NCBI GenBank assembly: GCA_963768055.1
Contig: CAVYGN010000001.1
Location: 1,184,001 to 1,248,000, forward strand
DNA length: 64,000 nt
Source of the DNA: an uncultured Spirochaetota bacterium
GTDB taxonomy: Bacteria; Spirochaetota; Brevinematia; Brevinematales; JAOACQ01
Direction of reading: 5' to 3'
The notes beneath the pieces were generated by a model. That model was given only the letters and a program-made list of their open reading frames with translations. It was not told the DNA's origin and made no database searches. Positions within the stretch are counted from its first letter, which is position 1, and every line of letters begins with the position of its first letter. This document shows positions 17,640-30,377 of this stretch, piece by piece. Both the position numbers and the translations under genes were made by a program.

Positions 17640-17819
17640 ATGAAAAAAATAGATCCGGTATGCAGGGTGGAGGTGATTATGGACTCCGAATTGCATTCAG
17701 ATTACAAGGGTAAAACATATTATTTCAATTCAAAGGGATGTATGGACGAGTTCACCAAAGATCCTGAAAAATTTATAAATGAAAACGAACCGAGGAGAAA
17801 CCTCTATTCCTGCTGTTAA
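17640..17819 (+). CDS. YHS-domain small protein (59 aa)
   Basis: Not in the ORF track (below 60 aa): MKKIDPVCRVEVIMDSELHSDYKGKTYYFNSKGCMDEFTKDPEKFINENEPRRNLYSCC; RBS AGGGGTG. Confidence 0.85.
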   Translation: MKKIDPVCRVEVIMDSELHSDYKGKTYYFNSKGCMDEFTKDPEKFINENEPRRNLYSCC

Positions 17820-17969: not shown

Positions 17970-20900
17970 ATGGTAAATCATGACGACGTTATAAGAGAAC
18001 TAACGGGATCAAGCGAGTATTTAAGGGCGCTGATATCGAAAAATAACGATATTTATTATGAGTTGGAATCGGCTATCGCTGATTGGAACGATAAAAAGGT
18101 TTTTAAAAGAACCGCATATTATGAAAAATACCAATTTAAGGCATCTTTAAAGGATAATGAAGGCATACTTCTCCAATCAAGATTAATTAAAAACAGGGAA
18201 CTGGCTTTGATAGCTTTAAGGGATTTCTTACATATAAATTCAGTAAGCGATACTCTTACGGATCTTTCAAAACTCGCGGATTTCTGCATCGATTATTCAA
18301 TAAAAAGCCTGCTCAGTTTTTCAGACATTAAAAAAAGCGTTACTTATGAAGTTTTAAAAAGAAATCTTATAATTATCGGAATGGGCAAGCTCGGGGGCAA
18401 CGAACTCAATATAAGTTCAGACATAGATCTTATCTTTCTCGGGAAAGACTCAAGTCTGTCCGATGACGGTATGAGGCATGATATTGAAAACTTCCTTTCA
18501 AGGCTTCTTGATTTTATTTACGCAACTTCCAGCGAAGGATTTTTATATCGAGTCGATATGAGACTCAGGCCGGAGGGCGAAAACGGACCCTTGATCATGG
18601 GAATTCAAAACGCAATCGAATATTACAAAAGCAGGGCCAGGAAGTGGGAACTCCAGGCTATGATAAAAAAAAGACTTGTCTGGGGAAGCGAGGAACTCTA
18701 TCAGGATTTTGCAATCCCCCTTGACAATATTGTGTACCGGCACCATCAGCCCCAGAGTATCATTTACGATATTAAAAAGATCAAGAACGAAATCGAACTA
18801 AATATCCGGCGCAAAAAACTTGCGTTTGAAATAAAACAATCTCCCGGCGGCATAAGGGATATTGAATTTATTATCCAATTTCTCCAGCTTATTCATGGAA
18901 TCCGTTATCCCGAGATAAGGAACTCGAATTCAATATCGGCATTGGCCTCGCTAAATACTTTCCATATAATAACCCCTGACGAATTTACTACTCTGAATAT
19001 CAGTTATATCATCCTGAGGAAGATTGAAAATATACTTCAGCTGAAAAACAATACCCCCGAACATGCCTTGCCGGAAAAAGACAGCGATATCGAGAAACTT
19101 TTCAGATACTGGAAGATCGGCGGATTTGAAAGCGGTTCGGGCAATTATGGCAGGGATTTTAAAAACAGGGTCGCAAAGATTATGACGGATGTGAGAAGTA
19201 TTTTCTCATCCCTGTTCGACGAAACGATCCGTTATCTTGAATTAAAGGACAACCTTATCAAGGAGCATCCGGATATAGATAAAACTCTTCTTGAGGATCA
19301 TTTTCTGAGAATGGACAGCGAATATTTTCTCCGTTTCCAGGAAAATGAAATCTATAATCATATAAAAATGATCTCAAAGCTCGATCTTCAAAATCCCGCC
19401 GAGTTGGAAGCTGAAGAGGCCGGCCAGGGCAAATGGAAAATTACAATTGTAGCTTTTGATTATTATTATGAATTTTCCAAAATCGCGGGCCTGGTCTCCG
19501 CTTATTATTTAAAGATAATCAGCGGAGAATCATTTACATACAGCGATTATACGCCTTCGATAAGCAGTGATCCGGATACTATTTACAGGAGAAAAAAAAA
19601 GAGGATCTATCCCTTTTCCTCTGCAAATAAATCCGAATTACTTATATATAGAAGAAAAATAGTATGTTTTTTATTTGTTGCGCCGCTGGAAGGGCATGTC
19701 CTGGAAGGGTATGCCCCGGAGGGACCTGATTGGGATGCCTTTAAAAAAGAATTTATCCATATACTTAATTTCCTGGAAACTAACAGAATAAGAGAATCGG
19801 AGGAATTTCTCAACAATAAGATCCTGGGACTTATTTCCGGAATTCAATCCGGGGAAACCCTGATGCTTTCACCGGTCGATATAGAGGTGGACAATGATTC
19901 AAGCAGCCAGTATACCATATTGAACATACGTTCGAGAGACAGTTTCGCTTTCCTTTACACTTTTACCAATGTACTTGCCCTCAATAATTATTATATTTTT
20001 AAAATCGAAATAGATACTGTCGATGACAGGGCCTTCGACAGGCTGTTCATTCTCACCAGGGACGGTAAAAAAATACTGGAATCTGAAAAAATTGAAAATC
20101 TTAAAATAGCCGTCGCGCTTATCAAGCAGTATTCAACCTTGCTTCAGAACGCTGTCAACCCGGATAAGGCGCTTCATTATTTCGACGAACTTCTTTCAAA
20201 GGTACTTGAAAGCGGAGGTAAAACGGAATTGCCTATTCTCGGTCAGAATGACGTTCAGAAAAAACTTGCAACCGTTTTCGGGATCGGGGATTATTTTTGG
20301 GAGGATCTTATAAGATTTCAATACACAGATATGCTCCCTATATTGAACGATCCCTCGCTTGAATTACGATTTTCAAGAAGCCTTTTAACGGCCAATTTTA
20401 CAAATAATTATCTTAAAAAAAAACCTGAAGCAGAAGGCCTTGGTGAATTCGGAAAACATTTGAGTGAATGGAAAGATATGGAAATGTTCAGGATCGATCT
20501 CAGGCAGATCCTGAAAAAAATCGATATGATCCAATTTTCACTTGAACTGACTGAATTGGCTGAAGCTGTAATAGAAATAGCCCTTCAAAGGATAAATAAA
20601 GAAATTTTCGGGGTCCATGTTAAAAATATACCTCCCCTGGCCGTATTCGGCCTCGGAAAACTCGGAGGAAGGGAACTCGGATATGCTTCCGATATAGAAA
20701 TTATGTTTATTTATGATGATACCGATATCGGCGGCGACCTGGCCGATATCGATTCGTATTTTGAAAAATTCATTCAAACTTTTCTCAGCGTCATCCGTTC
20801 AAAGAGGGAGGGAATTTTTGAAATCGACCTCAACCTGAGGCCATATGGGAAGTCTTCCAAATTGTCGGTGTCAAAATCGAGCTTCTTTGAATATTTCACC

Positions 20901-21509
20901 GACGGCAAGGCTTATTATTTTGAAAAACAGGCGCTTGTTAAATTAAGGCCTGTTTCGAACGAAAAATCCTCCTTAAAATTAATACAGGAAATAACAGCCC
21001 ACCGCGATAAATTCGTTTACAGCGGGGAAAAGCCTGACATAACAGCGCTCCTGAATTTGAGGGAAAAGCAGATCCGCACATACATTAAGGATCCCGTTCT
21101 TACAAATATAAAATATTCTAAGGGGTGTCTCGTAGATATAGAATATCTGGTCCAGACCCTTCAGATTGCATATGGAAAGACTTTTTTATCCCTGAGACTC
21201 GAATCCACGCTCGAGGCTGCGGAGGCCCTCTTCAATACTGGTATAATTAGCGAACAGGTCCGGAACGGATTAACTGAAAGCTATCTTTTTTTCAGGAATC
21301 TGATAAATATTCTCCGAATGGTTAAGGGAAACGCCAAAGATCTGAATGTATACCCGGAATCTTCAATGGAATTCGATTACCTTGTCAGGAGGAGTTATTT
21401 TATCGGCATTATCGAACAGAAATCACCCTCGCTTTTAAAAAACATGATTGAAAAATACAGACAGCAAGTCTTAAATATTTTTAACGATGAAATCGGCAAG
21501 TTAAAATGA
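17970..21509 (+). CDS. glnE: Glutamine synthetase adenylyltransferase/removase GlnE with inserted tandem ACT domains
   Basis: Two NTase domains (GMGKLGGNELNISSDIDL..RVDMRLRPEG; GLGKLGGRELGYASDIE..EIDLNLRPYG), each followed by K..PGGIRDIEF / KYSKGCLVDIEY; central GlnD-like ACT pair. Confidence 0.9.
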   Translation: MVNHDDVIRELTGSSEYLRALISKNNDIYYELESAIADWNDKKVFKRTAYYEKYQFKASLKDNEGILLQSRLIKNRELALIALRDFLHINSVSDTLTDLSKLADFCIDYSIKSLLSFSDIKKSVTYEVLKRNLIIIGMGKLGGNELNISSDIDLIFLGKDSSLSDDGMRHDIENFLSRLLDFIYATSSEGFLYRVDMRLRPEGENGPLIMGIQNAIEYYKSRARKWELQAMIKKRLVWGSEELYQDFAIPLDNIVYRHHQPQSIIYDIKKIKNEIELNIRRKKLAFEIKQSPGGIRDIEFIIQFLQLIHGIRYPEIRNSNSISALASLNTFHIITPDEFTTLNISYIILRKIENILQLKNNTPEHALPEKDSDIEKLFRYWKIGGFESGSGNYGRDFKNRVAKIMTDVRSIFSSLFDETIRYLELKDNLIKEHPDIDKTLLEDHFLRMDSEYFLRFQENEIYNHIKMISKLDLQNPAELEAEEAGQGKWKITIVAFDYYYEFSKIAGLVSAYYLKIISGESFTYSDYTPSISSDPDTIYRRKKKRIYPFSSANKSELLIYRRKIVCFLFVAPLEGHVLEGYAPEGPDWDAFKKEFIHILNFLETNRIRESEEFLNNKILGLISGIQSGETLMLSPVDIEVDNDSSSQYTILNIRSRDSFAFLYTFTNVLALNNYYIFKIEIDTVDDRAFDRLFILTRDGKKILESEKIENLKIAVALIKQYSTLLQNAVNPDKALHYFDELLSKVLESGGKTELPILGQNDVQKKLATVFGIGDYFWEDLIRFQYTDMLPILNDPSLELRFSRSLLTANFTNNYLKKKPEAEGLGEFGKHLSEWKDMEMFRIDLRQILKKIDMIQFSLELTELAEAVIEIALQRINKEIFGVHVKNIPPLAVFGLGKLGGRELGYASDIEIMFIYDDTDIGGDLADIDSYFEKFIQTFLSVIRSKREGIFEIDLNLRPYGKSSKLSVSKSSFFEYFTDGKAYYFEKQALVKLRPVSNEKSSLKLIQEITAHRDKFVYSGEKPDITALLNLREKQIRTYIKDPVLTNIKYSKGCLVDIEYLVQTLQIAYGKTFLSLRLESTLEAAEALFNTGIISEQVRNGLTESYLFFRNLINILRMVKGNAKDLNVYPESSMEFDYLVRRSYFIGIIEQKSPSLLKNMIEKYRQQVLNIFNDEIGKLK

Positions 21510-22397
21510 AATATTCCCGTTTATTTTTTTTATTTTCTTATCGTCGTACATAAGTGAATCCGCTGCCTTCAAAGCGTCTTTAAGGGCCTCCCTGCTAAAA
21601 TCATAAAGCTTGGAAATCCCGAAGGAAAGAGAAAGGCAGTATGGATTTCCTCTTTTATTATACTCGCTGACTTGCTCCCTTATCCGGGATATAACAGCGG
21701 TTTCAAGATTTTCGGACTTACCGGTTATTACAAGTACCGCAAACTCATCTCCTCCCATACGGGCAATAACATCCCATTCCCTGAAAACATTTTTTAAAAA
21801 TAACGCTGTGTCTTTAATAACAGCATCGCCGGTGTCATGACCGAAAGCATCGTTAATCAGCTTGAGATTGTCTATATCGATATAAACTATATGAGTAAAT
21901 AAATTATTCCTTGCGGCAAACTGGTATTGCTTGGCCGCCAATGCATAAAACCCTCTTCGGTTTGATAGTCCTGTAAGTTCGTCAGTTCTGGAGAGCCGGG
22001 AAACCGAGTTGAATAATCTGAAGCGTTCAACCGCATATTTGATCGATTTATTAATATTTTCAGCATTGATCTCGGACTTTACTAAATAATCCTGAGCTCC
22101 GAACCGTATAGAGGTAAGAGCCATCCTCTCATCCCTCAAGCCGGTCAGCACAATAATCGGCACATCGCTTGACAATAATTTTATATTATTGACTGTTTTA
22201 TTTCCCTGGCTGTCGGGCAGTTCTAGATCCAGAATAATCAGCCCTATGTCTTCGTTCAGGACTATTTTCTTCCCCTGCGCCAGGGTTTCCGCTTTAATTA
22301 TCCTGCTGTCTGTGTCCTTTAAGTACTCCTCCAGCAGCCTTGCATCCCCGGGGTTGTCCTCTATGACCAGGATATTGCCGTATTCTGTCGATATCAT
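21501..22397 (-). CDS. Response-regulator diguanylate cyclase (REC-GGDEF)
   Basis: IEDNPGD, ILDLELPD receiver; DELTGLSNRR, I-site RxxD (REWD), RMGGDEF. Confidence 0.93.
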   Translation of the reverse strand: MISTEYGNILVIEDNPGDARLLEEYLKDTDSRIIKAETLAQGKKIVLNEDIGLIILDLELPDSQGNKTVNNIKLLSSDVPIIVLTGLRDERMALTSIRFGAQDYLVKSEINAENINKSIKYAVERFRLFNSVSRLSRTDELTGLSNRRGFYALAAKQYQFAARNNLFTHIVYIDIDNLKLINDAFGHDTGDAVIKDTALFLKNVFREWDVIARMGGDEFAVLVITGKSENLETAVISRIREQVSEYNKRGNPYCLSLSFGISKLYDFSREALKDALKAADSLMYDDKKIKKINGNISF

Positions 22398-23944
22398 CCT
22401 GAACTCCCGGACCCATTTTGGGCCTCCAGTTCAGCGGGAATAGTAAAATAAAAAGTCGATCCTTTTTGCACTTCCGATTCAACCCAGATATTACCCCCAT
22501 GTCTTTCAACTATTTTCTTGCAGATTGAGAGGCCTATGCCGGTTCCCCCGTATTCGGACCTGGGATGAAGGCGCTGGAAGATCACAAATATCTTTTCGAA
22601 GTAAGCCGGATCTATTCCAATACCGTTGTCCTTAACTGAGAACAGCCATTTCCTGCCGCATTTCGATGCTGAAACAGCGATGCATGGTTTTTCACTCCCC
22701 TTGAACTTTATAGAATTTGACACAAGGTTTTCAAAAAGTTGTATAAGCTGCGCCCTGTCATATAAGATCTTCGGGAGACGGCTATGGGTAATTTCTACCC
22801 CGCTCTCCTTAATAGCCACAGCCAGATCTATTTTTATCTCTTCAATGATCTCGTTGCAGTCGATAATTGCAGGAGGATTACCCATAGTAGATATTCTCGA
22901 GTAATCGAGCAAATCGTTAATAAAGTTCTGCATTCTTGTGGCGCCGTCGACGGCAAAATTGATGAATTCGTCCGCATTTTTGTCAAGTTTACCCTTGTAC
23001 CGGTCAGAAAGGAGTTTTGTATAGCTTGCAACCATCCTCAGGGGTTCCTGGAGGTCATGGGAGGCCACATAGGCGAATTGTTCAAGGTCATGATTGGAAC
23101 GCCTCAACTCTTCCTGGGTTTTTTTCAAATCGGAAATTTCATGCAGAACGGAAATTATTTTCATGGGTTCGCCATGTTCATCATAAACGACCCTCGAATT
23201 GATAAGCACAGGATACTTCTTGCCATTTTTATCCATTATCTCTATTTCGAAATTTCTAAAACACCCATCGTTCAAGCATTGAGAAAGGCTTTTAACCATC
23301 CTGACATGTTCCTCTTCATCTATCATTTGAAGCGGCATGCTGCCTATAACTTCCTGTTCATTATAGCCTGTTAATTCAAGGAACGCCCTGTTCACCTGTA
23401 TTATCCTCCCCTGCAGGTCTGTTACTTCAATGGGATCCATCATGCCTTCGATAATTTCGGATGCCGTTTTAAGCGACTTGGCGGTTAATAAGGCCGTTTC
23501 CCTTTCAGCCTGTTCCTTTTTAAGCTCCGTTATGTCGTTAAATACAACCAGGAGGTTCTGGGCGCCATTGATATTGAAAGAGATGAACCGGTTGTTAAGC
23601 CATATATCCTTTCCGGTTTCTGTTGTAATATGGATTTCTCTTTCAGCCTCCTCCCCGGTATTAAGGGTATAATCTTTAGCCTCAATAAACCCTGAATTCT
23701 TCCGGTTTTCAAGAAAGCCGGGAAAACCCTTGCCGATTTTCATCAGGGTCCGATTTGCCGCCACAAGGTTCCCGTTATTATCGTACAATGCTATGCCTAC
23801 CGGAAGAATATCTATTATTTTCTTGTCAAATTCCAGGATATCCTGCCGGGGTTGCAGCGATGAATTATTCTTCAACACTTCAATTTCTCTTTCAAGTTCC
23901 ACGATCTTTTGCTTTAATCTGAAAACATCTTCCTTTTCTTTCAT
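22394..23944 (-). CDS. Cytoplasmic PAS-PAS histidine kinase (Cph1-like kinase core)
   Basis: Two PAS/PAC domains, FAYVASHDLQEPLR, DNGIGI, FQRLH, GTGIGL; ATGA overlap with the REC-GGDEF gene. Confidence 0.93.
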   Translation of the reverse strand: MKEKEDVFRLKQKIVELEREIEVLKNNSSLQPRQDILEFDKKIIDILPVGIALYDNNGNLVAANRTLMKIGKGFPGFLENRKNSGFIEAKDYTLNTGEEAEREIHITTETGKDIWLNNRFISFNINGAQNLLVVFNDITELKKEQAERETALLTAKSLKTASEIIEGMMDPIEVTDLQGRIIQVNRAFLELTGYNEQEVIGSMPLQMIDEEEHVRMVKSLSQCLNDGCFRNFEIEIMDKNGKKYPVLINSRVVYDEHGEPMKIISVLHEISDLKKTQEELRRSNHDLEQFAYVASHDLQEPLRMVASYTKLLSDRYKGKLDKNADEFINFAVDGATRMQNFINDLLDYSRISTMGNPPAIIDCNEIIEEIKIDLAVAIKESGVEITHSRLPKILYDRAQLIQLFENLVSNSIKFKGSEKPCIAVSASKCGRKWLFSVKDNGIGIDPAYFEKIFVIFQRLHPRSEYGGTGIGLSICKKIVERHGGNIWVESEVQKGSTFYFTIPAELEAQNGSGSSG

Positions 23945-24059: not shown

Positions 24060-24091
24060 AAAAAAAACCCGCCCGTTAAAAGGGCGGGTTT
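24060..24091 (-). terminator. Rho-independent terminator of glnA
   Basis: AAACCCGCCC-gttaaaa-GGGCGGGTTT stem, with an A-run at 24060-24067 (U-tract on the minus strand). Confidence 0.85.
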
Positions 24092-24128: not shown

Positions 24129-25547
24129 TTAAATATCGTAGTAGAGGAAAAACTCGTAGGGATGCGGCCTCTGCTGAATAGCCCTGACTTCGTTAACCAT
24201 TTTATATTCTATCCAGGTATCGATCACGTCTTTTGTGAATACATCGCCCTTCAGGAGAAACTCATGGTCGTTTTGAAGGTTGTTTAAAGCCTCTTCGAGC
24301 GAACCTGGAATGTTGCCGACTTTAGACTGTTCTTCCGGAGGAAGATCGTAGATATTTTTATCCATCGGCTCGCCTGGGTCAATCTTATTCTGGATTCCGT
24401 CGAGTCCGGCCAGGAGCATAGCGGAAAACGCAAGGTAAGGGTTACAGCTCGGATCGGGTGTCCTGAATTCAAGCCGTTTTGACGCAGGGTTTGTAGAATA
24501 CATTGGAATTCTTACGGCAGCGCTTCTATTCCTTGCCGAATATGCCAGTTTGATTGGTGCTTCGAAGCCGGGAACAAGCCTCTTATAAGAATTCATAGTA
24601 GGACAGGTAATGGCGACAAGGGAATTAGCGTGCTTTAAAATTCCGCCGATATACCAGAGTCCTTCCTGCGAAAATCCGGCATATTTATTACCAGCAAAGA
24701 GGTTTTTACCGCCCTTCCAGATACTCTGATGGCAATGCATACCGCTTCCATTATCGCCGAAGAGAGGCTTGGGCATGAATGTAACGGTCTTGCAGTTGTT
24801 GACGGCTACGCTCTTCGTAACGTATTTATAAAATAGAACCTGGTCGGCCATTTTCACGAGATCGGTATACCTCATATCTATTTCAGCCTGTCCGGCTGTT
24901 GCGACTTCATGATGGTGCGCTTCGATGCGGATTCCGACTTTTTCAAGCATCTGCACCATTTCACTTCGGATGTCCATAAGAGAATCGGAGGGAGGAACCG
25001 GGAAATATCCTTCTTTATGCCTGATCTTATAACCCTTGTTCCCGCATTCTTCTACCCTGCCTGTATTCCATACGCCTTCATCGGAATCGATGTAATAATA
25101 GCCCTCTTTCGCATTCTGGCCGTATCTTATATCATCGAATATGAAGAATTCAAGCTCCGGGCCAATATAAATAGTGTCTCCTATTCCGGTGCTTTTTAAA
25201 TAATTGACCGCTTTTTTAGCGATATGCCTCGGATCTCTTGTGTATTCCTGGAGGGTGATGGGATCCTTGATATCCGCTATCATTATCAAAGTGGGATACT
25301 GTGAGAACGGATCGATTACAGCAGTAGTCGGGTCAGCCATTAAAAGCATATCGGATTCGTTAATCCCCTGCCAGCCTCGGATGGAAGAACCGTCAAATCC
25401 TAATCCTTCCTCAAAAGGACTTTCGTCCTTGAATTCTGAAACAGGATAAGTACAGTGCTGCCACATACCCGGAAAATCCATGAAACGCAAATCTACCTGA
25501 ACGATACCTTCTTTTTTTATCAGGTCCAATACTCCTTTAGCGTCCAT
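24129..25547 (-). CDS. glnA: Glutamine synthetase type I (GSI-beta)
   Basis: [50 protein letters not shown]; adenylylation loop [10 protein letters not shown]. Confidence 0.98.
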
Positions 25548-25590
25548 ATATATACCTCCTTAATTTTATGCGAAACGCTGTCTTTTAGAG

Positions 25591-25606
25591 AGCAATTATT
25601 GTTCCA
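25591..25606 (-). promoter_or_regulatory. Sigma54 (-24/-12) promoter of glnA
   Basis: Minus strand TGGAACAATAATTGCT = GG-N10-GC, about 45 nt upstream of the glnA ATG. Confidence 0.8.
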
Positions 25607-25747
25607 TAATTTTAACTTTTTAGGATACTTCCACACAAGCAGGTAACCCTAACGGACACAGGTACCCTGCGGGCACAGGCAATTATTATAATTAACTAAA
25701 ATTAAATTACAACTTTTATTAAATAATTTCTTGAGGGTTAAATTTAT

Positions 25748-25776
25748 TTGCTTATATTTTACTCAACACTTATAAT
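25748..25776 (+). promoter_or_regulatory. Sigma70-type promoter of the enhancer-binding protein gene
   Basis: TTGCTT-17 nt-TATAAT. Confidence 0.6.
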
Positions 25777-25810
25777 AATGATTAAATAATAATCATATCA
25801 AGGAATAAGT

Positions 25811-27886
25811 ATGGACAATAATTACACTAAGGAACTTGAGGAAAAGATAAAACGGTTAAAACTTATCCAATATCTCACAATAGCTATGAACGAGACTTCC
25901 GATTCCCAGGAACTTTTAAAAATAATGCTTGATAAATGCATAGCTATTACGGGCGCTGACAGCGGTTCAATTATGATAAAAGACCCCGGTTCCAGGCACC
26001 TGCGTTACGAGGCGTTTAAGGGGCTTGACGAGGATATGGTCTTCCGGACCCCGATCGAAGTGGGTGAAGGCCTCACAGGAACTGTGTTTCAGGATGGAAT
26101 TCCCAGGCTTGTCAGTGATGTAAGTATCGATCCGGTCTATATTTCTGTACGGAAGGATATACGGTCGGAACTGGCAGTCCCGCTCTCAGTACAGGGAAAA
26201 ATAATAGGTGTTGTTAATGTTGACAGCGCTAAGATAGGTGCTTTTACCGAGGGCGACATGGAATTTCTGCAGACAATATCCAACCAGGCCGCCCAGATAC
26301 TTGTCAGAACAAACCTGAACCATCAACTTGAAAGTAAAATAAAATTCAAGGATATTCTTCTGGATATATCCCAGAGTATTGAAAAGATCTTCGAATTGTC
26401 GGATTCATTTGAAATCGTGATGAAAAAACTGGCTGACAGCTTTGGAATTTACAGGGGAATGCTCGTTCTCTTCGAGAAGAACGAACCGAATAAGCTTTCG
26501 ATATATAACGCCTACAATATTACAGACGAAGAAATGTCCCGAGGTATTTACAAAGTAGGCGAAGGAGTCGTAGGCAAGGTCGTCGAAACCGGCAAGGCCC
26601 TTTCAATTAAAGATATCAATAAAGACGATTCATATCTCAACAGGCTTCAAATCAAGCGCGATAAAAATGTCCCGATCTCTTTTATAGCAGTTCCGATAAA
26701 AATCGAGGGGATAGTAGTAGGCGTTCTCGCTGTCGAAAAATACTTTGAAAATGAGAACACTTTAAACGACGAGGAAGACATGATGATCCTTGTGGCAAAT
26801 ATCATAGCAAATAAAGTCAAATCGTGGGAAAGAATATATAAAGACAAAGAGAATCTCATCGCTGAAAATACTATTCTAAAAAAAGAGCTTTTCAAGAATT
26901 TCGCAATCGACAATATTATCGGTAAAAACAAGCAAATGATAGCGGTTTTCGAACTTATTAAAACCGTGTCCGACAGCAATTCATCTATTTTGATCCTAGG
27001 TGAAAGCGGTACAGGTAAAGAACTTGTCGCCCAGGCCCTGCATGTCGGAAGCGGAAGAAAGGATTCCCCCTTTGTAAGCATCAACTGCGCATCGATCCCT
27101 GAAAATCTTCTCGAGTCCGAACTCTTCGGATATAAAAAAGGGGCTTTTACCGGTGCGATATCCGATAAAAAGGGGAAATTTCAATTGGCTAACGGGGGGA
27201 CAATATTCCTCGATGAAATCGGCGATATGCCCCTTTATCTTCAGGCAAAACTTTTAAGGGCTATACAGGAAAGGGAAATCGAACCCCTCGGCAGCGAGGC
27301 CAAAATAAAAATAGATATCAGGATCATTTCGGCAACCAACAAGGAGCTTGATAAATTGATAAAGGACGGAAAATTCAGGAAAGACCTTTATTACCGCCTC
27401 AATGTAATCGAAATCCAGATACCCCCTCTGAGGAGCAGAAAAGACGATATCCCGCTTCTTGTAAACCATTTTATCAAAAAGTATTCAACCCGGGACAACA
27501 AAAATGTGTATGGCATCTCGCAGGAATCTTTAAGGCTCCTCCAGTCTTATAACTGGCCGGGCAATATCAGGGAACTTGAAAATGTAATTGAAAGAGCGGT
27601 TCTCCTCTGCCGGTCTCAGACTATTGAGGTTGTGAACCTCCCGTCATTTCTCATGGATATAGAAGAAGTGCCTGATATTCATATAAGCAAATGGATAGAA
27701 GGCTTTGTTAAAAATCCGGCCTGCAACGGGAAACTTTATGAAAGGATTATAGGCCATATTGAAAAGGAGCTTATTTCAAGGTCTCTTATATTCAACAATC
27801 GAAACAAGGTCAAGACCTCGGACTTTCTCGGCATCAACAGGAATACCCTTAGAAGCAAGATGGAAGAGTATAATATCAAAATATAA
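25811..27886 (+). CDS. Sigma54-dependent activator, GAF-GAF-AAA+-Fis-HTH (NifA-like)
   Basis: Two GAF domains (GEGLTG; RGIYKVGEGVVG), GESGTGKE, ESELFG, GAFTGA, FLDEIG, WPGNIREL, LGINRNTL; no receiver domain. Confidence 0.93.
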   Translation: MDNNYTKELEEKIKRLKLIQYLTIAMNETSDSQELLKIMLDKCIAITGADSGSIMIKDPGSRHLRYEAFKGLDEDMVFRTPIEVGEGLTGTVFQDGIPRLVSDVSIDPVYISVRKDIRSELAVPLSVQGKIIGVVNVDSAKIGAFTEGDMEFLQTISNQAAQILVRTNLNHQLESKIKFKDILLDISQSIEKIFELSDSFEIVMKKLADSFGIYRGMLVLFEKNEPNKLSIYNAYNITDEEMSRGIYKVGEGVVGKVVETGKALSIKDINKDDSYLNRLQIKRDKNVPISFIAVPIKIEGIVVGVLAVEKYFENENTLNDEEDMMILVANIIANKVKSWERIYKDKENLIAENTILKKELFKNFAIDNIIGKNKQMIAVFELIKTVSDSNSSILILGESGTGKELVAQALHVGSGRKDSPFVSINCASIPENLLESELFGYKKGAFTGAISDKKGKFQLANGGTIFLDEIGDMPLYLQAKLLRAIQEREIEPLGSEAKIKIDIRIISATNKELDKLIKDGKFRKDLYYRLNVIEIQIPPLRSRKDDIPLLVNHFIKKYSTRDNKNVYGISQESLRLLQSYNWPGNIRELENVIERAVLLCRSQTIEVVNLPSFLMDIEEVPDIHISKWIEGFVKNPACNGKLYERIIGHIEKELISRSLIFNNRNKVKTSDFLGINRNTLRSKMEEYNIKI

Positions 27887-28622: not shown

Positions 28623-30377
28623 TTAAGGAACTTTGAAGACCAGGATGGTCATATCATCCCACTGGGGAGCTCCGTTCGACCACAAATCGATTTCCCTGAA
28701 GATGATGTTTACAATAGTCGATGAGTTTAAAGAAGAATATTCCTTTATTAATTTTTTAAGCCTTTCAAGCCCGAAATCGGCGCCCTTGTCGTTTACAGCG
28801 TCAATGATGCCATCCGTGAAGCAGAATACCAGATCGCCCTGATCAAGCTGGATGCTTGAAGATATGTAATTCTCGGATTTTGTAATTCCAAGCGGAATAC
28901 CCTTGCTTGAAAGAGAATCGAATTGCCCCGTCCTCGTTTTGTAAACATATTGGAGATTATGTCCGGCGTTCGAATATTCCAGGATCCTCCTGTTCAAGTC
29001 AAGACTGCCGTAAAACATCGTAACGAACATCCCTACTCTCGAATCTTCAACAAGAATATCATTTGAATATTCCAGGAGCCTGTGAGGTTCCTTGGTATGA
29101 AACGCGTAGGCTTTCACCACGCTTCTGGATACAGCCATATATAAGGATGCCGGTAGGCCTTTCCCCGAAACATCTCCTATTACGAATCCGATCCTGCTCG
29201 GGGTTAATGTATATATATCGTAAAAATCCCCGCCGACAACTTCAGCCGTCTGCATCTTCGCAAACACCGATATATTTTTAAAGGTATTGAAATCGCTTAT
29301 CAGCAGGGCATTTTGAAGGGTTTTCATGATATCGATTTCCTTTTTGATCTTTTCATGCTCGAGCTGTTCATTATAACTCAATATGCTTTCATATGTATGG
29401 CCTACCTGGTTGGCGATCGTCCTCAGTGTTTTTATCATTTCAGGCGTGTATCGAGCCCATTTTTTAGGTTCGGAAATATTGATAACTCCGACGCATATGT
29501 TTTTAATCTTGATAGGGGTGCAGATAAAGCTTGCATTTTTATACCTGAACCGTTTGTTCCTGCCCAGACCGGTCTTTTCAATATCGTTTGAATAAATTGT
29601 TTTACCCTGCTTCATAGCCCTGCTCGATATTTTATCTATATCGAGGCTGTGTTCCATTTTTTCCACTACATCCTGAGGCATGCCGATGGCACTCTCAATG
29701 TGAAGATTGCCTGTTTTTTCATTAATAAACATTATTGATACACGGTGCGAATTGAAGATTTTCGACAGCAGTTCTACAATCTTTGAGAAGAGAACCTTCC
29801 TGTCATATGTAAGATTTGTGAGATTGGATATCTGGTAAAGATATTCCAGTTCTTTGGCCCTTGTTTGTATAGCCTTATATAACAGGGCATTAGCAATGGC
29901 TGTTGCAGCCTGTTCGGCAAACTGTTTCAATAGCATTACGTCATCGTCTGTAAATATTTTTTTGGCGGGATTTATTACCTCGATGACCCCTATCGATTTT
30001 TCATTGTGGATCAGGGGCATTGCAAGGAGATTTTTTGTTTTCAGATTGGTCTTTTCATCGACCCCTTTGTAAAACCTTTCATCCTTTTCCGCATCGTAAA
30101 CGATGACATGCTCCTTGGTCTGAGCCGCATATCCTGCAATGCCTTTTCCCTTAGGAACTATTACATCGCTGAGGGCGTCTGCATTTTCTCCAAACGCTAC
30201 CTCGAAAAACATGTTGTTGGTATCAGGGTCTACAAGCAGAATGGATGCGCCTTCCGCATTCAGGAGAACGCCGGAATAATGAGAAATGTCATTCAGAATG
30301 CTGCGTACATCCTCAATCGAGTTGATCTTCCTGTTTATATCAAGTACTGCCTGTAAATCTTCTATCTTTAAAGCCAT
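28623..30377 (-). CDS. GAF-GAF-PP2C (SpoIIE/RsbU-type) protein phosphatase
   Basis: Two GAF domains, VGGDFYD, GDVSGKG, SNAGH, TDGI, DDMT. Confidence 0.93.
   Translation of the reverse strand: MALKIEDLQAVLDINRKINSIEDVRSILNDISHYSGVLLNAEGASILLVDPDTNNMFFEVAFGENADALSDVIVPKGKGIAGYAAQTKEHVIVYDAEKDERFYKGVDEKTNLKTKNLLAMPLIHNEKSIGVIEVINPAKKIFTDDDVMLLKQFAEQAATAIANALLYKAIQTRAKELEYLYQISNLTNLTYDRKVLFSKIVELLSKIFNSHRVSIMFINEKTGNLHIESAIGMPQDVVEKMEHSLDIDKISSRAMKQGKTIYSNDIEKTGLGRNKRFRYKNASFICTPIKIKNICVGVINISEPKKWARYTPEMIKTLRTIANQVGHTYESILSYNEQLEHEKIKKEIDIMKTLQNALLISDFNTFKNISVFAKMQTAEVVGGDFYDIYTLTPSRIGFVIGDVSGKGLPASLYMAVSRSVVKAYAFHTKEPHRLLEYSNDILVEDSRVGMFVTMFYGSLDLNRRILEYSNAGHNLQYVYKTRTGQFDSLSSKGIPLGITKSENYISSSIQLDQGDLVFCFTDGIIDAVNDKGADFGLERLKKLIKEYSSLNSSTIVNIIFREIDLWSNGAPQWDDMTILVFKVP

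Follow-up and report, generated by a model that had tools for sequence, protein, structure and literature searches.

A divergent EbpA-type double-GAF activator and a candidate sigma-54 nitrogen regulon at glnA of an uncultured spirochaete of the order Brevinematales

The type I glutamine synthetase (GS) gene glnA of an uncultured Spirochaetota bacterium of the order Brevinematales (assembly GCA_963768055.1) is located within a stretch of 64,000 nucleotides of contig CAVYGN010000001.1 (positions 1,184,001 to 1,248,000), hereafter the window, and faces a divergent gene for a sigma-54 activator with two GAF domains. Very probably glnA depends on sigma-54 and has this divergent protein as its activator, with no classical NtrBC pair in that role; a circuit running without NtrBC is plausible. 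The activator is assigned as the Brevinematales orthologue of spirochaetal EbpA and, with considerable probability, it drives a sigma-54 regulon of nitrogen genes, glnA included, through paired dyads. Its action on these genes is a candidate role, proposed from the arrangement of promoters and dyads before glnA, two amtB genes and a gene for a permease-PII fusion. The original prediction had presented this arrangement as its best candidate for an undescribed system, which it is not, because the activator is the counterpart of Leptospira EbpA, its reciprocal best match and a published activator of amtB. The system is of a known kind, that of the EbpA-RpoN nitrogen control of Leptospira and of NifA-like GAF activators of assimilation genes.

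The activator gene (25811-27886, plus strand) encodes a protein of 691 aa with the domain order GAF1-GAF2-AAA+(GAFTGA)-lid-HTH_8. Pfam matches comprised two GAF stretches (best aa 30-164), Sigma54_activat (PF00158, 244 bits, aa 369-536), AAA_lid_14 and HTH_8 (aa 650-687); no match to Response_reg, the receiver of NtrC, was obtained in the protein, and the ntrC model aligned only to aa 366-686. The stretches GESGTGKE, GAFTGA (aa 444-449) and DEIG were read directly in the translation, and their residues are invariant among 38 activator orthologues. The protein thus carries the marks of an enhancer-binding protein, an AAA+ domain with Walker A, Walker B and GAFTGA followed by an HTH (helix-turn-helix) at the C-terminus, and the genome contains an intact rpoN (461-aa open frame, TIGR02395 339 bits, cut-off 277). 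The NifA model TIGR01817 aligned to aa 183-608 with 475.3 bits, under its cut-off of 528.85, and the protein does not qualify as a NifA. The best solved relatives of GAF2 (aa 182-346) were the GAF domains of Aquifex Nlh1/Nlh2 (PDB 4g3k, 4g3v) and of NifA (9qq6, 8jrc), with E values from 3e-14 to 5e-9, while that of GAF1 (aa 14-162) was the GAF of PtsP/EI-Ntr (3trc, E 3e-8). GAF2 is classed as of the NifA/Nlh type, and it contains a stretch Y-x-x-GEG-x-x-G that is invariant across the 38 orthologues. The predicted divergent, receiver-less GAF-GAF-AAA+-HTH gene with a NifA-like second GAF was in this way borne out.

Using the N-terminal 350 aa of the activator as query, full-length frames of about 690 aa were retrieved across the order at E <= 1e-115, from families f1 (11/11 genomes), f2 (4/4), f4 (4/4), f5 (1/1) and f6 (2/2), and one frame of about 710 aa was found in each of the 75 genomes of family f15 (E ~1e-48 to 1e-65). 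In the reverse search the 11 tested orthologues, five of them from f15, all matched this activator best in its genome; the protein from one of these loci (L147, genome G071) scored 536 bits on it versus 296 bits for the next activator of the genome. Two f15 proteins that were looked up belong to protein clusters whose named members are Leptospira species, and the one from L. interrogans shows 44% identity to the activator over 693 aa and shares the GAF2 stretch G-x-Y-x-x-GEG-V-x-GKV. Membership of the EbpA family is supported by the architecture (two GAF domains, AAA+, HTH, no receiver) and by the full-length reciprocal best match. For L. interrogans, PMC12655853 reports no more than two sigma-54 activators, one that has two GAF domains (EbpA) and one that has a receiver (EbpB); because EbpA is the sole activator of the GAF type reported there, the matched Leptospira protein is identified as EbpA (LIC_10132) by elimination and not by an accession match. 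The same review describes binding and activation of amtB and of two lipoprotein genes by EbpA and RpoN, poor growth of an ebpA mutant when nitrogen is limiting, and a predicted sigma-54 promoter upstream of glnA (PMC12655853). PMC5243855, in the part available, agrees with respect to EbpA-RpoN and amtB.

The glnA gene (24129-25547, minus strand) encodes a type I glutamine synthetase of 472 aa, which scored 676 bits on TIGR00653 (cut-off 429) and matched Pfam Gln-synt_N and Gln-synt_C. Its translation contains the stretch NIYDLPPEE, which would hold the adenylylation tyrosine. A sigma-54 -24/-12 element, TGGAACAATAATTGCT, is positioned at 25591-25606 on the minus strand, 43 nt upstream of the glnA ATG, with GG at -24, GC at -12 and the exact spacing, which bears out the well-formed site of the original prediction. 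If C25592 is taken as -12, the predicted transcript start falls near 25580, the position that the original prediction gave. Two copies of the loose pattern TGG-N8-TTGCW are present in the window, against 3.9 expected from shuffles, so that the motif by itself is not above chance there and its position and conservation carry the weight. The other copy (17680-17695), considered as a promoter of glnE, was rejected, since it lies inside a 59-codon open reading frame (ORF). The promoter was judged real because of its conservation across relatives and not because of motif frequency. The 16-base element is identical in two relatives with 91% identity (L016/L017), whose flanks have diverged, and TGG-N8-TTGC is present 46-111 nt upstream of the ATG in 12/12 glnA loci of Brevinematales, which represent four genera and three families with a divergent surrounding spacer. 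In all 12 Brevinematales genomes having type I glnA, this gene is divergent from the activator gene. The divergent pair with TGG-N8-TTGC was also found in G034, from another family, and a canonical -24/-12 motif lies within about 100 nt upstream of glnA in the four f15 genomes that have the type I enzyme (4/4).

Upstream of the glnA -24 element, at a distance of 160-190 bp, there are two 17-bp dyads of the form TG-N13-CA, which are set 30 bp apart from start to start and form the candidate enhancer. Site 1, TGATTAAATAATAATCA (25779-25795), is the proposed activator binding site, lying 16 nt upstream of the activator ATG and 189 bp from the sigma-54 element of glnA. Site 2, TGCTTATATTTTACTCA on the plus strand (25749-25765), overlaps a -35-like TTGCTT of the activator gene. 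Between the dyads there is a TATAAT (25771-25776, plus strand), with TTGCTT 17 nt upstream, which would be the -10 box of the activator gene; the -10 box region is conserved in close relatives. NtrC binds 17-bp TG-N13-CA dyads about 32 bp apart as dimers. The consensus TGATTAAT-N-ATTAATCA was derived from the upstream regions of three nitrogen units of the genome. The arrangement of a dyad, a 13-bp spacer and a second dyad was recovered in 12/12 Brevinematales loci (ten with full score, one with 5/6 and one with 4/6), and TATTATA, the complement of the activator -10 box, is found in the dyad spacer of 11 of them, the remaining one (G276) having TAATAATAATATA. A stretch of about 50 bp (~25632-25682), placed between the sigma-54 element and the AT-rich block that is conserved, is richer in G+C, contains repeated ACAGG(T/C)A-like words and is absent from the two closest relatives. 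It widens the distance between enhancer and promoter to about 190 bp here, compared with about 115-145 bp in f4 and f5.

When the genome was scanned for sigma-54 elements that are intergenic and have a gene behind them, 29 candidates were obtained, three of them nitrogen-related units: glnA, an operon amtB (467 aa)-glnK-glnD, and a gene for a 633-aa amino-acid-permease-PII fusion. As an independent test, a symmetrised dyad matrix was constructed from 22 sites in 11 further genomes, this genome being excluded, and was scanned over the 3.69 Mb of this genome. Rank 1 was the site upstream of permease-PII, rank 2 was glnA site 1, rank 3 the amtB1 site and rank 5 glnA site 2; all four are intergenic with a sigma-54 element 116-189 bp downstream, and ranks 4 and 6-10 are inside ORFs without a sigma-54 element. 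A weaker site at rank 19 precedes amtB2-glnK2, where the sigma-54 element follows 146 bp on. The shared dyad and sigma-54 element would define one nitrogen regulon of glnA, amtB1-glnK-glnD, amtB2-glnK2 and permease-PII. Comparable arrangements were detected in relatives. In G181, whose activator N-terminus is 84% identical, the four dyads with one mismatch all lie 100-225 bp upstream of sigma-54 elements (4/4) and precede two amtB genes, one permease gene and glnA. G201 has one dyad between the divergent sigma-54 elements of amtB and a permease gene, and G211 one upstream of a Glu/Leu/Phe/Val-dehydrogenase (gdhA-type) gene.

The permease-PII fusion gene (G000:C1:99203-101104; L183:3204-5102) encodes AA_permease_2 with a C-terminal PII domain whose T-loop is unlike that of GlnK, and it has a sigma-54 element and the best dyad of the genome upstream. 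On its 3' side there is a PII-like frame that seems to change about 10 codons in, owing either to a frameshift or to an error of assembly. In G181 and G201, permease genes homologous to it stand behind sigma-54 elements. Well-formed intergenic sigma-54 elements without a dyad were also recorded outside the window, at C2:712622 (-), C2:1075266 (-), C1:384498, C1:381325 and C1:1764591 (-); the genes behind them are one for a 284-aa sigma-70-family factor, lpxC and three TonB-dependent-receptor-like genes, and these elements are presumably targets of other activators. The placement of a sigma-70-family factor behind a sigma-54 element recalls the RpoN-RpoS cascade of Borrelia. One further dyad, at C2:473610, has a TGG-N8-TTGC close by but was discarded because it lies inside a gene.

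Several observations weigh against the proposed control by EbpA through the dyads. Only five sites in 3.69 Mb match the consensus with two or fewer mismatches, a count that is circular, as three of them are the source sites and the consensus was read off the same three promoters; the matrix scan is the only independent test of the dyad, and its 11 source genomes are relatives. Of 13 sites in G276, the three that were fetched (L170, L175, L180) have no sigma-54 element, and several dyad sites of G211 likewise lack one. The glnA-side dyads of G276, G285, G132 and G201 are degenerate: either they depart from the consensus at three or more positions, or no dyad was detected at the threshold used. 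In family f7 no sigma-54 motif was found in 5/7 glnA loci within 420 nt of approximate starts, the motif being present at the other two. The dyad was not found upstream of the sigma-54 amtB promoters in five f15 genomes, and the enhancer sequence is therefore regarded as lineage-specific. Finally, the transcript start, the sigma-54 dependence and the binding of the dyads by the activator are all inferred from the sequence.

The neighbours of the activator gene were compared in 40 hand-picked loci around its orthologues, 10 from f15 and several cut by contig ends. Type I glnA was adjacent and divergent in 10 of them and about 3 kb away in two, and no type I GS was present within 8 kb of the activator in the 10 f15 loci fetched (0/10). 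Where type I GS is missing, the orthologue is divergent to type III GS in G016, with a TGGCACGTTTCTTGCA motif at the 5' end of the GS gene, and in G031. Other orthologues are divergent to gltB, the glutamate synthase (GOGAT) large subunit gene (G271), placed between asparagine synthase and gltB-gltD (G304), or next to an aminotransferase gene (G066). The activator gene thus appears to keep a nitrogen-assimilation neighbour even when that neighbour changes. Among the 43 genomes of the class, type I GS was detected in 20 (E <= 1e-80) and in 0/12 of the small-genome family f3 (1.4-2.3 Mb), in which no full-length EbpA-type activator was found and only GAF-only frames of about 370 aa matched the GAF-GAF query. 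In two f15 loci (L147:5685-7721 and L149:5812-7743) the divergent neighbour is a PP2C (SpoIIE-type) phosphatase gene, with a GAF domain detected in L147 only. A GAF-GAF-PP2C (SpoIIE-type) phosphatase gene also lies two genes from the activator in the window (28623-30377, minus strand), so that the association of phosphatase and activator recurs in the window and in two Leptospira-type loci. A sensor common to the product in the window and the activator was considered; the two double GAFs are colinear at 23% identity, but the phosphatase lacks the GEG motif of GAF2.

In the proposed mechanism, nitrogen limitation would lead EbpA dimers on the dyads to form an ATPase ring, which would loop to the sigma-54 RNA polymerase and open the nitrogen promoters. 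Occupancy of the dyads may at the same time throttle the sigma-70 promoter of the activator itself, as autorepression. By analogy with the Nlh1 GAF, the GAF domains and the helix between GAF2 and the ATPase would keep the ATPase inactive until a signal arrives; PMC9866876 describes the Nlh1 GAF as a back-to-back dimer with a coiled-coil signalling helix that keeps the ATPase domains separate until ligand binds. The signal may be direct binding of 2-oxoglutarate or of glutamine, or an action of GlnK on the GAF region. The glnA product may be controlled further by the ACT-bearing GlnE.

The nature of this input is where the most serious alternative arises. The original prediction had noted that no ntrB/ntrC, PII, amtB or nif genes are present in the window, which is correct, but two amtB and two glnK genes, the latter both with T-loop Tyr51, occur elsewhere in the genome. 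The nifH model gave a best match of 23.9 bits versus a cut-off of 394 in this genome, which is 94.75% complete. The amtB1-glnK operon contains a GlnD-like gene whose product scored 364.7 bits on TIGR01693 (cut-off 519) and matched Pfam GlnD_UR_UTase, HD and ACT. A PII/GlnD cascade is present, and its genes are placed by their dyads and sigma-54 elements in the same predicted regulon. The idea that GS is governed by single-component metabolite sensors without PII fails, because the genome encodes the full PII apparatus, and its two amtB-glnK operons, the glnD gene in one of them and the permease-PII fusion belong to that predicted regulon. The GAF region of the activator may then be gated by GlnK, with its state set by GlnD, as in NifA systems that lack NifL, and the GAF activator would simply replace NtrBC in an ordinary PII cascade. 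We consider this possible, at a rather modest probability. It agrees with the gene content just described and with the action of GlnB or GlnK on the NifA GAF in Azospirillum and Herbaspirillum, as given in the accessible part of PMC9866876, where, on the other hand, the NifA GAF of A. vinelandii is stated to bind 2-oxoglutarate directly. The invariant Y-x-x-GEG-x-x-G of GAF2 would also fit a conserved ligand pocket. A complex prediction of activator aa 1-350 (38-row alignment) with three GlnK copies gave a score of 0.02, against a mark of 0.32, and bears neither way. Gating by GlnK would bear solely on the input and does not conflict with the regulon.

A far wider proposal would make the double-GAF EbpA family the phylum-wide master regulator of nitrogen in Spirochaetota, replacing NtrBC and reading the carbon/nitrogen balance directly through a PtsP-related GAF1 pocket and a NifA-related GAF2 pocket. 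As a cassette it would dock divergently on the ammonium-assimilating gene in use in a given lineage, be it for GS type I, GS type III, GOGAT or asparagine synthetase, and together with the ACT-bearing GlnE it would leave GS gated by metabolites at both levels, alongside PII and not through PII. Taken as a whole, this proposal is tentative and rather unlikely.

The absence of NtrC-type regulators does not extend from the window to the genome at large, since three activators of the receiver-AAA+-HTH type are encoded elsewhere (C2:661966, C2:404901 and C2:1325559), none of them at the NtrC cut-off. The sigma-54 promoter of glnA might be driven by one of these NtrC/EbpB-like proteins, with the GAF activator regulating other genes or only itself. 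The existence of the three proteins, with 355-407 bits on TIGR01818 (NtrC), speaks for this possibility and to that extent against control by EbpA, and one of them is accompanied by a separate sigma-54 element and by a cytoplasmic kinase of 358 aa. All three scores, however, are under the cut-off of 558.6, the kinase of one has its best match in the LIC_11548 family model, the type that partners EbpB in Leptospira, and no nitrogen gene was present near any of the three in the loci examined. Moreover, the dyads always straddle the promoter of the GAF activator itself, and the GAF activator retains nitrogen-assimilation neighbours when its neighbour changes. Control of glnA by a receiver-type activator is accordingly considered improbable.

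A sigma-70-like sequence, TTGTAA-16-TATAAT, is directed toward glnA upstream of the sigma-54 element (25685-25712, minus strand, 10/12 hexamer matches), within a block conserved in L016/L017; such sites are frequent in the AT-rich spacer (9 versus 4.8 expected). It may be a second glnA promoter resembling glnAp1. It is very improbable that the -24/-12 match arose by accident and that sigma-70-type promoters of this spacer alone serve glnA. The chance frequency of the loose motif in the window and the conserved sigma-70-like site are the points in favour of this reading, and they are outweighed by the motif being in place at every Brevinematales glnA locus while the spacer diverged, by its recurrence before glnA in f15, by the presence of rpoN and by the fact that promoters of both types can stand side by side, as at glnA of E. 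coli (glnAp1 and glnAp2).

With EbpA retained as the probable activator of glnA, the remaining features of the window concern the gene's surroundings and the control of its product. A hairpin resembling an intrinsic terminator, with 10 pairs (7 G-C) and a T run, is situated at 24065-24091 on the minus strand, 38 nt past the glnA stop; because of this hairpin glnA is apparently transcribed alone, which suggests a monocistronic gene. The genes directly downstream of glnA (21501-23944, minus strand) encode a 516-aa histidine kinase with PAS and a response regulator of the REC-GGDEF type. These were considered as an ntrB-like operon partner and rejected, given the strong terminator 3' of glnA and the presence of other genes at that place in two close relatives. 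GlnE adenylyltransferase (17970-21509, plus strand) has 1179 aa, about 230 aa more than the E. coli-type model, and consists of two nucleotidyltransferase halves with a central ACT-like insert. The insert (aa ~426-715, in parts ~426-524 and 635-715) aligns with the C-terminal ACT region of GlnD models and scored 24.8 bits on Pfam ACT_ACR9_3rd, under the cut-off of 27, in agreement with the ACT-containing GlnE that had been predicted. It may be glutamine-sensing. No sigma-54 element or dyad was found in the region upstream of glnE. Between a histidine kinase gene and glnE there is the 59-codon ORF mentioned above (17640-17819, plus strand, MKKIDPVCRV...), with paired cysteines.

These data extend the EbpA-RpoN nitrogen pathway to a deep and uncultured order of spirochaetes, the Brevinematales, for which no paper on nitrogen control was found when the literature was judged by title and abstract. 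With respect to the available portions of the Leptospira accounts, the new elements are the candidate enhancer, a paired 17-bp dyad spaced by 30 bp across the activator -10 box, the computed regulon, which comprises glnA, the permease-PII fusion and two amtB-glnK operons, glnD being part of one of them, and the exchange of the type I GS neighbour for GS type III, GOGAT or asparagine synthetase. The family is well suited to the question of which ligand is recognised by a nitrogen sensor with two GAF domains; the system itself is not of a new kind.

Among the known systems, EbpA-RpoN of Leptospira is reportedly the subject of a pathway study by Hu et al. 2017 (AEM). Both activators have two GAF domains, an AAA+ domain with GAFTGA and a Fis-type HTH, lack a receiver, and are 44% identical over the full length; sigma-54 ammonium-transporter genes are common to both systems, as is a sigma-54 promoter predicted at glnA, as far as the accessible Leptospira text goes. 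An EbpB-like receiver activator with a LIC_11548-type kinase also coexists in this genome. In contrast, the activator is divergent from glnA here, whereas the f15 loci have no type I GS nearby, and the 17-bp dyad of Brevinematales was not seen before the f15 amtB promoters examined. The regulon predicted here adds glnD and the permease-PII fusion.

NtrC (NR-I) activates the sigma-54 promoter glnAp2 of E. coli through a pair of 17-bp TG-N13-CA dyads that are spaced by about three helical turns and placed 100-200 bp upstream, and its regulon includes amtB-glnK, in likeness to the arrangement here; a possible upstream sigma-70 promoter overlapping the regulatory region is a further likeness. The activator described here differs in having neither a receiver nor an NtrB partner, in receiving its input via GAF domains, in its dyad sequence and in being divergent from glnA, in contrast to the glnA-ntrBC operon of E. 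coli. NifA and Aquifex Nlh1/Nlh2 share with it the region of GAF2 and AAA+ that aligns with the NifA model, and provide the closest solved relatives of GAF2. It is distinguished from NifA by the score below the NifA cut-off, by the lack of a detected nifH in the genome, by the extra N-terminal GAF1 and by a dyad that is not the NifA TGT-N10-ACA. Nlh1, according to the available part of PMC9866876, is thought to control nitrogen assimilation and not fixation.

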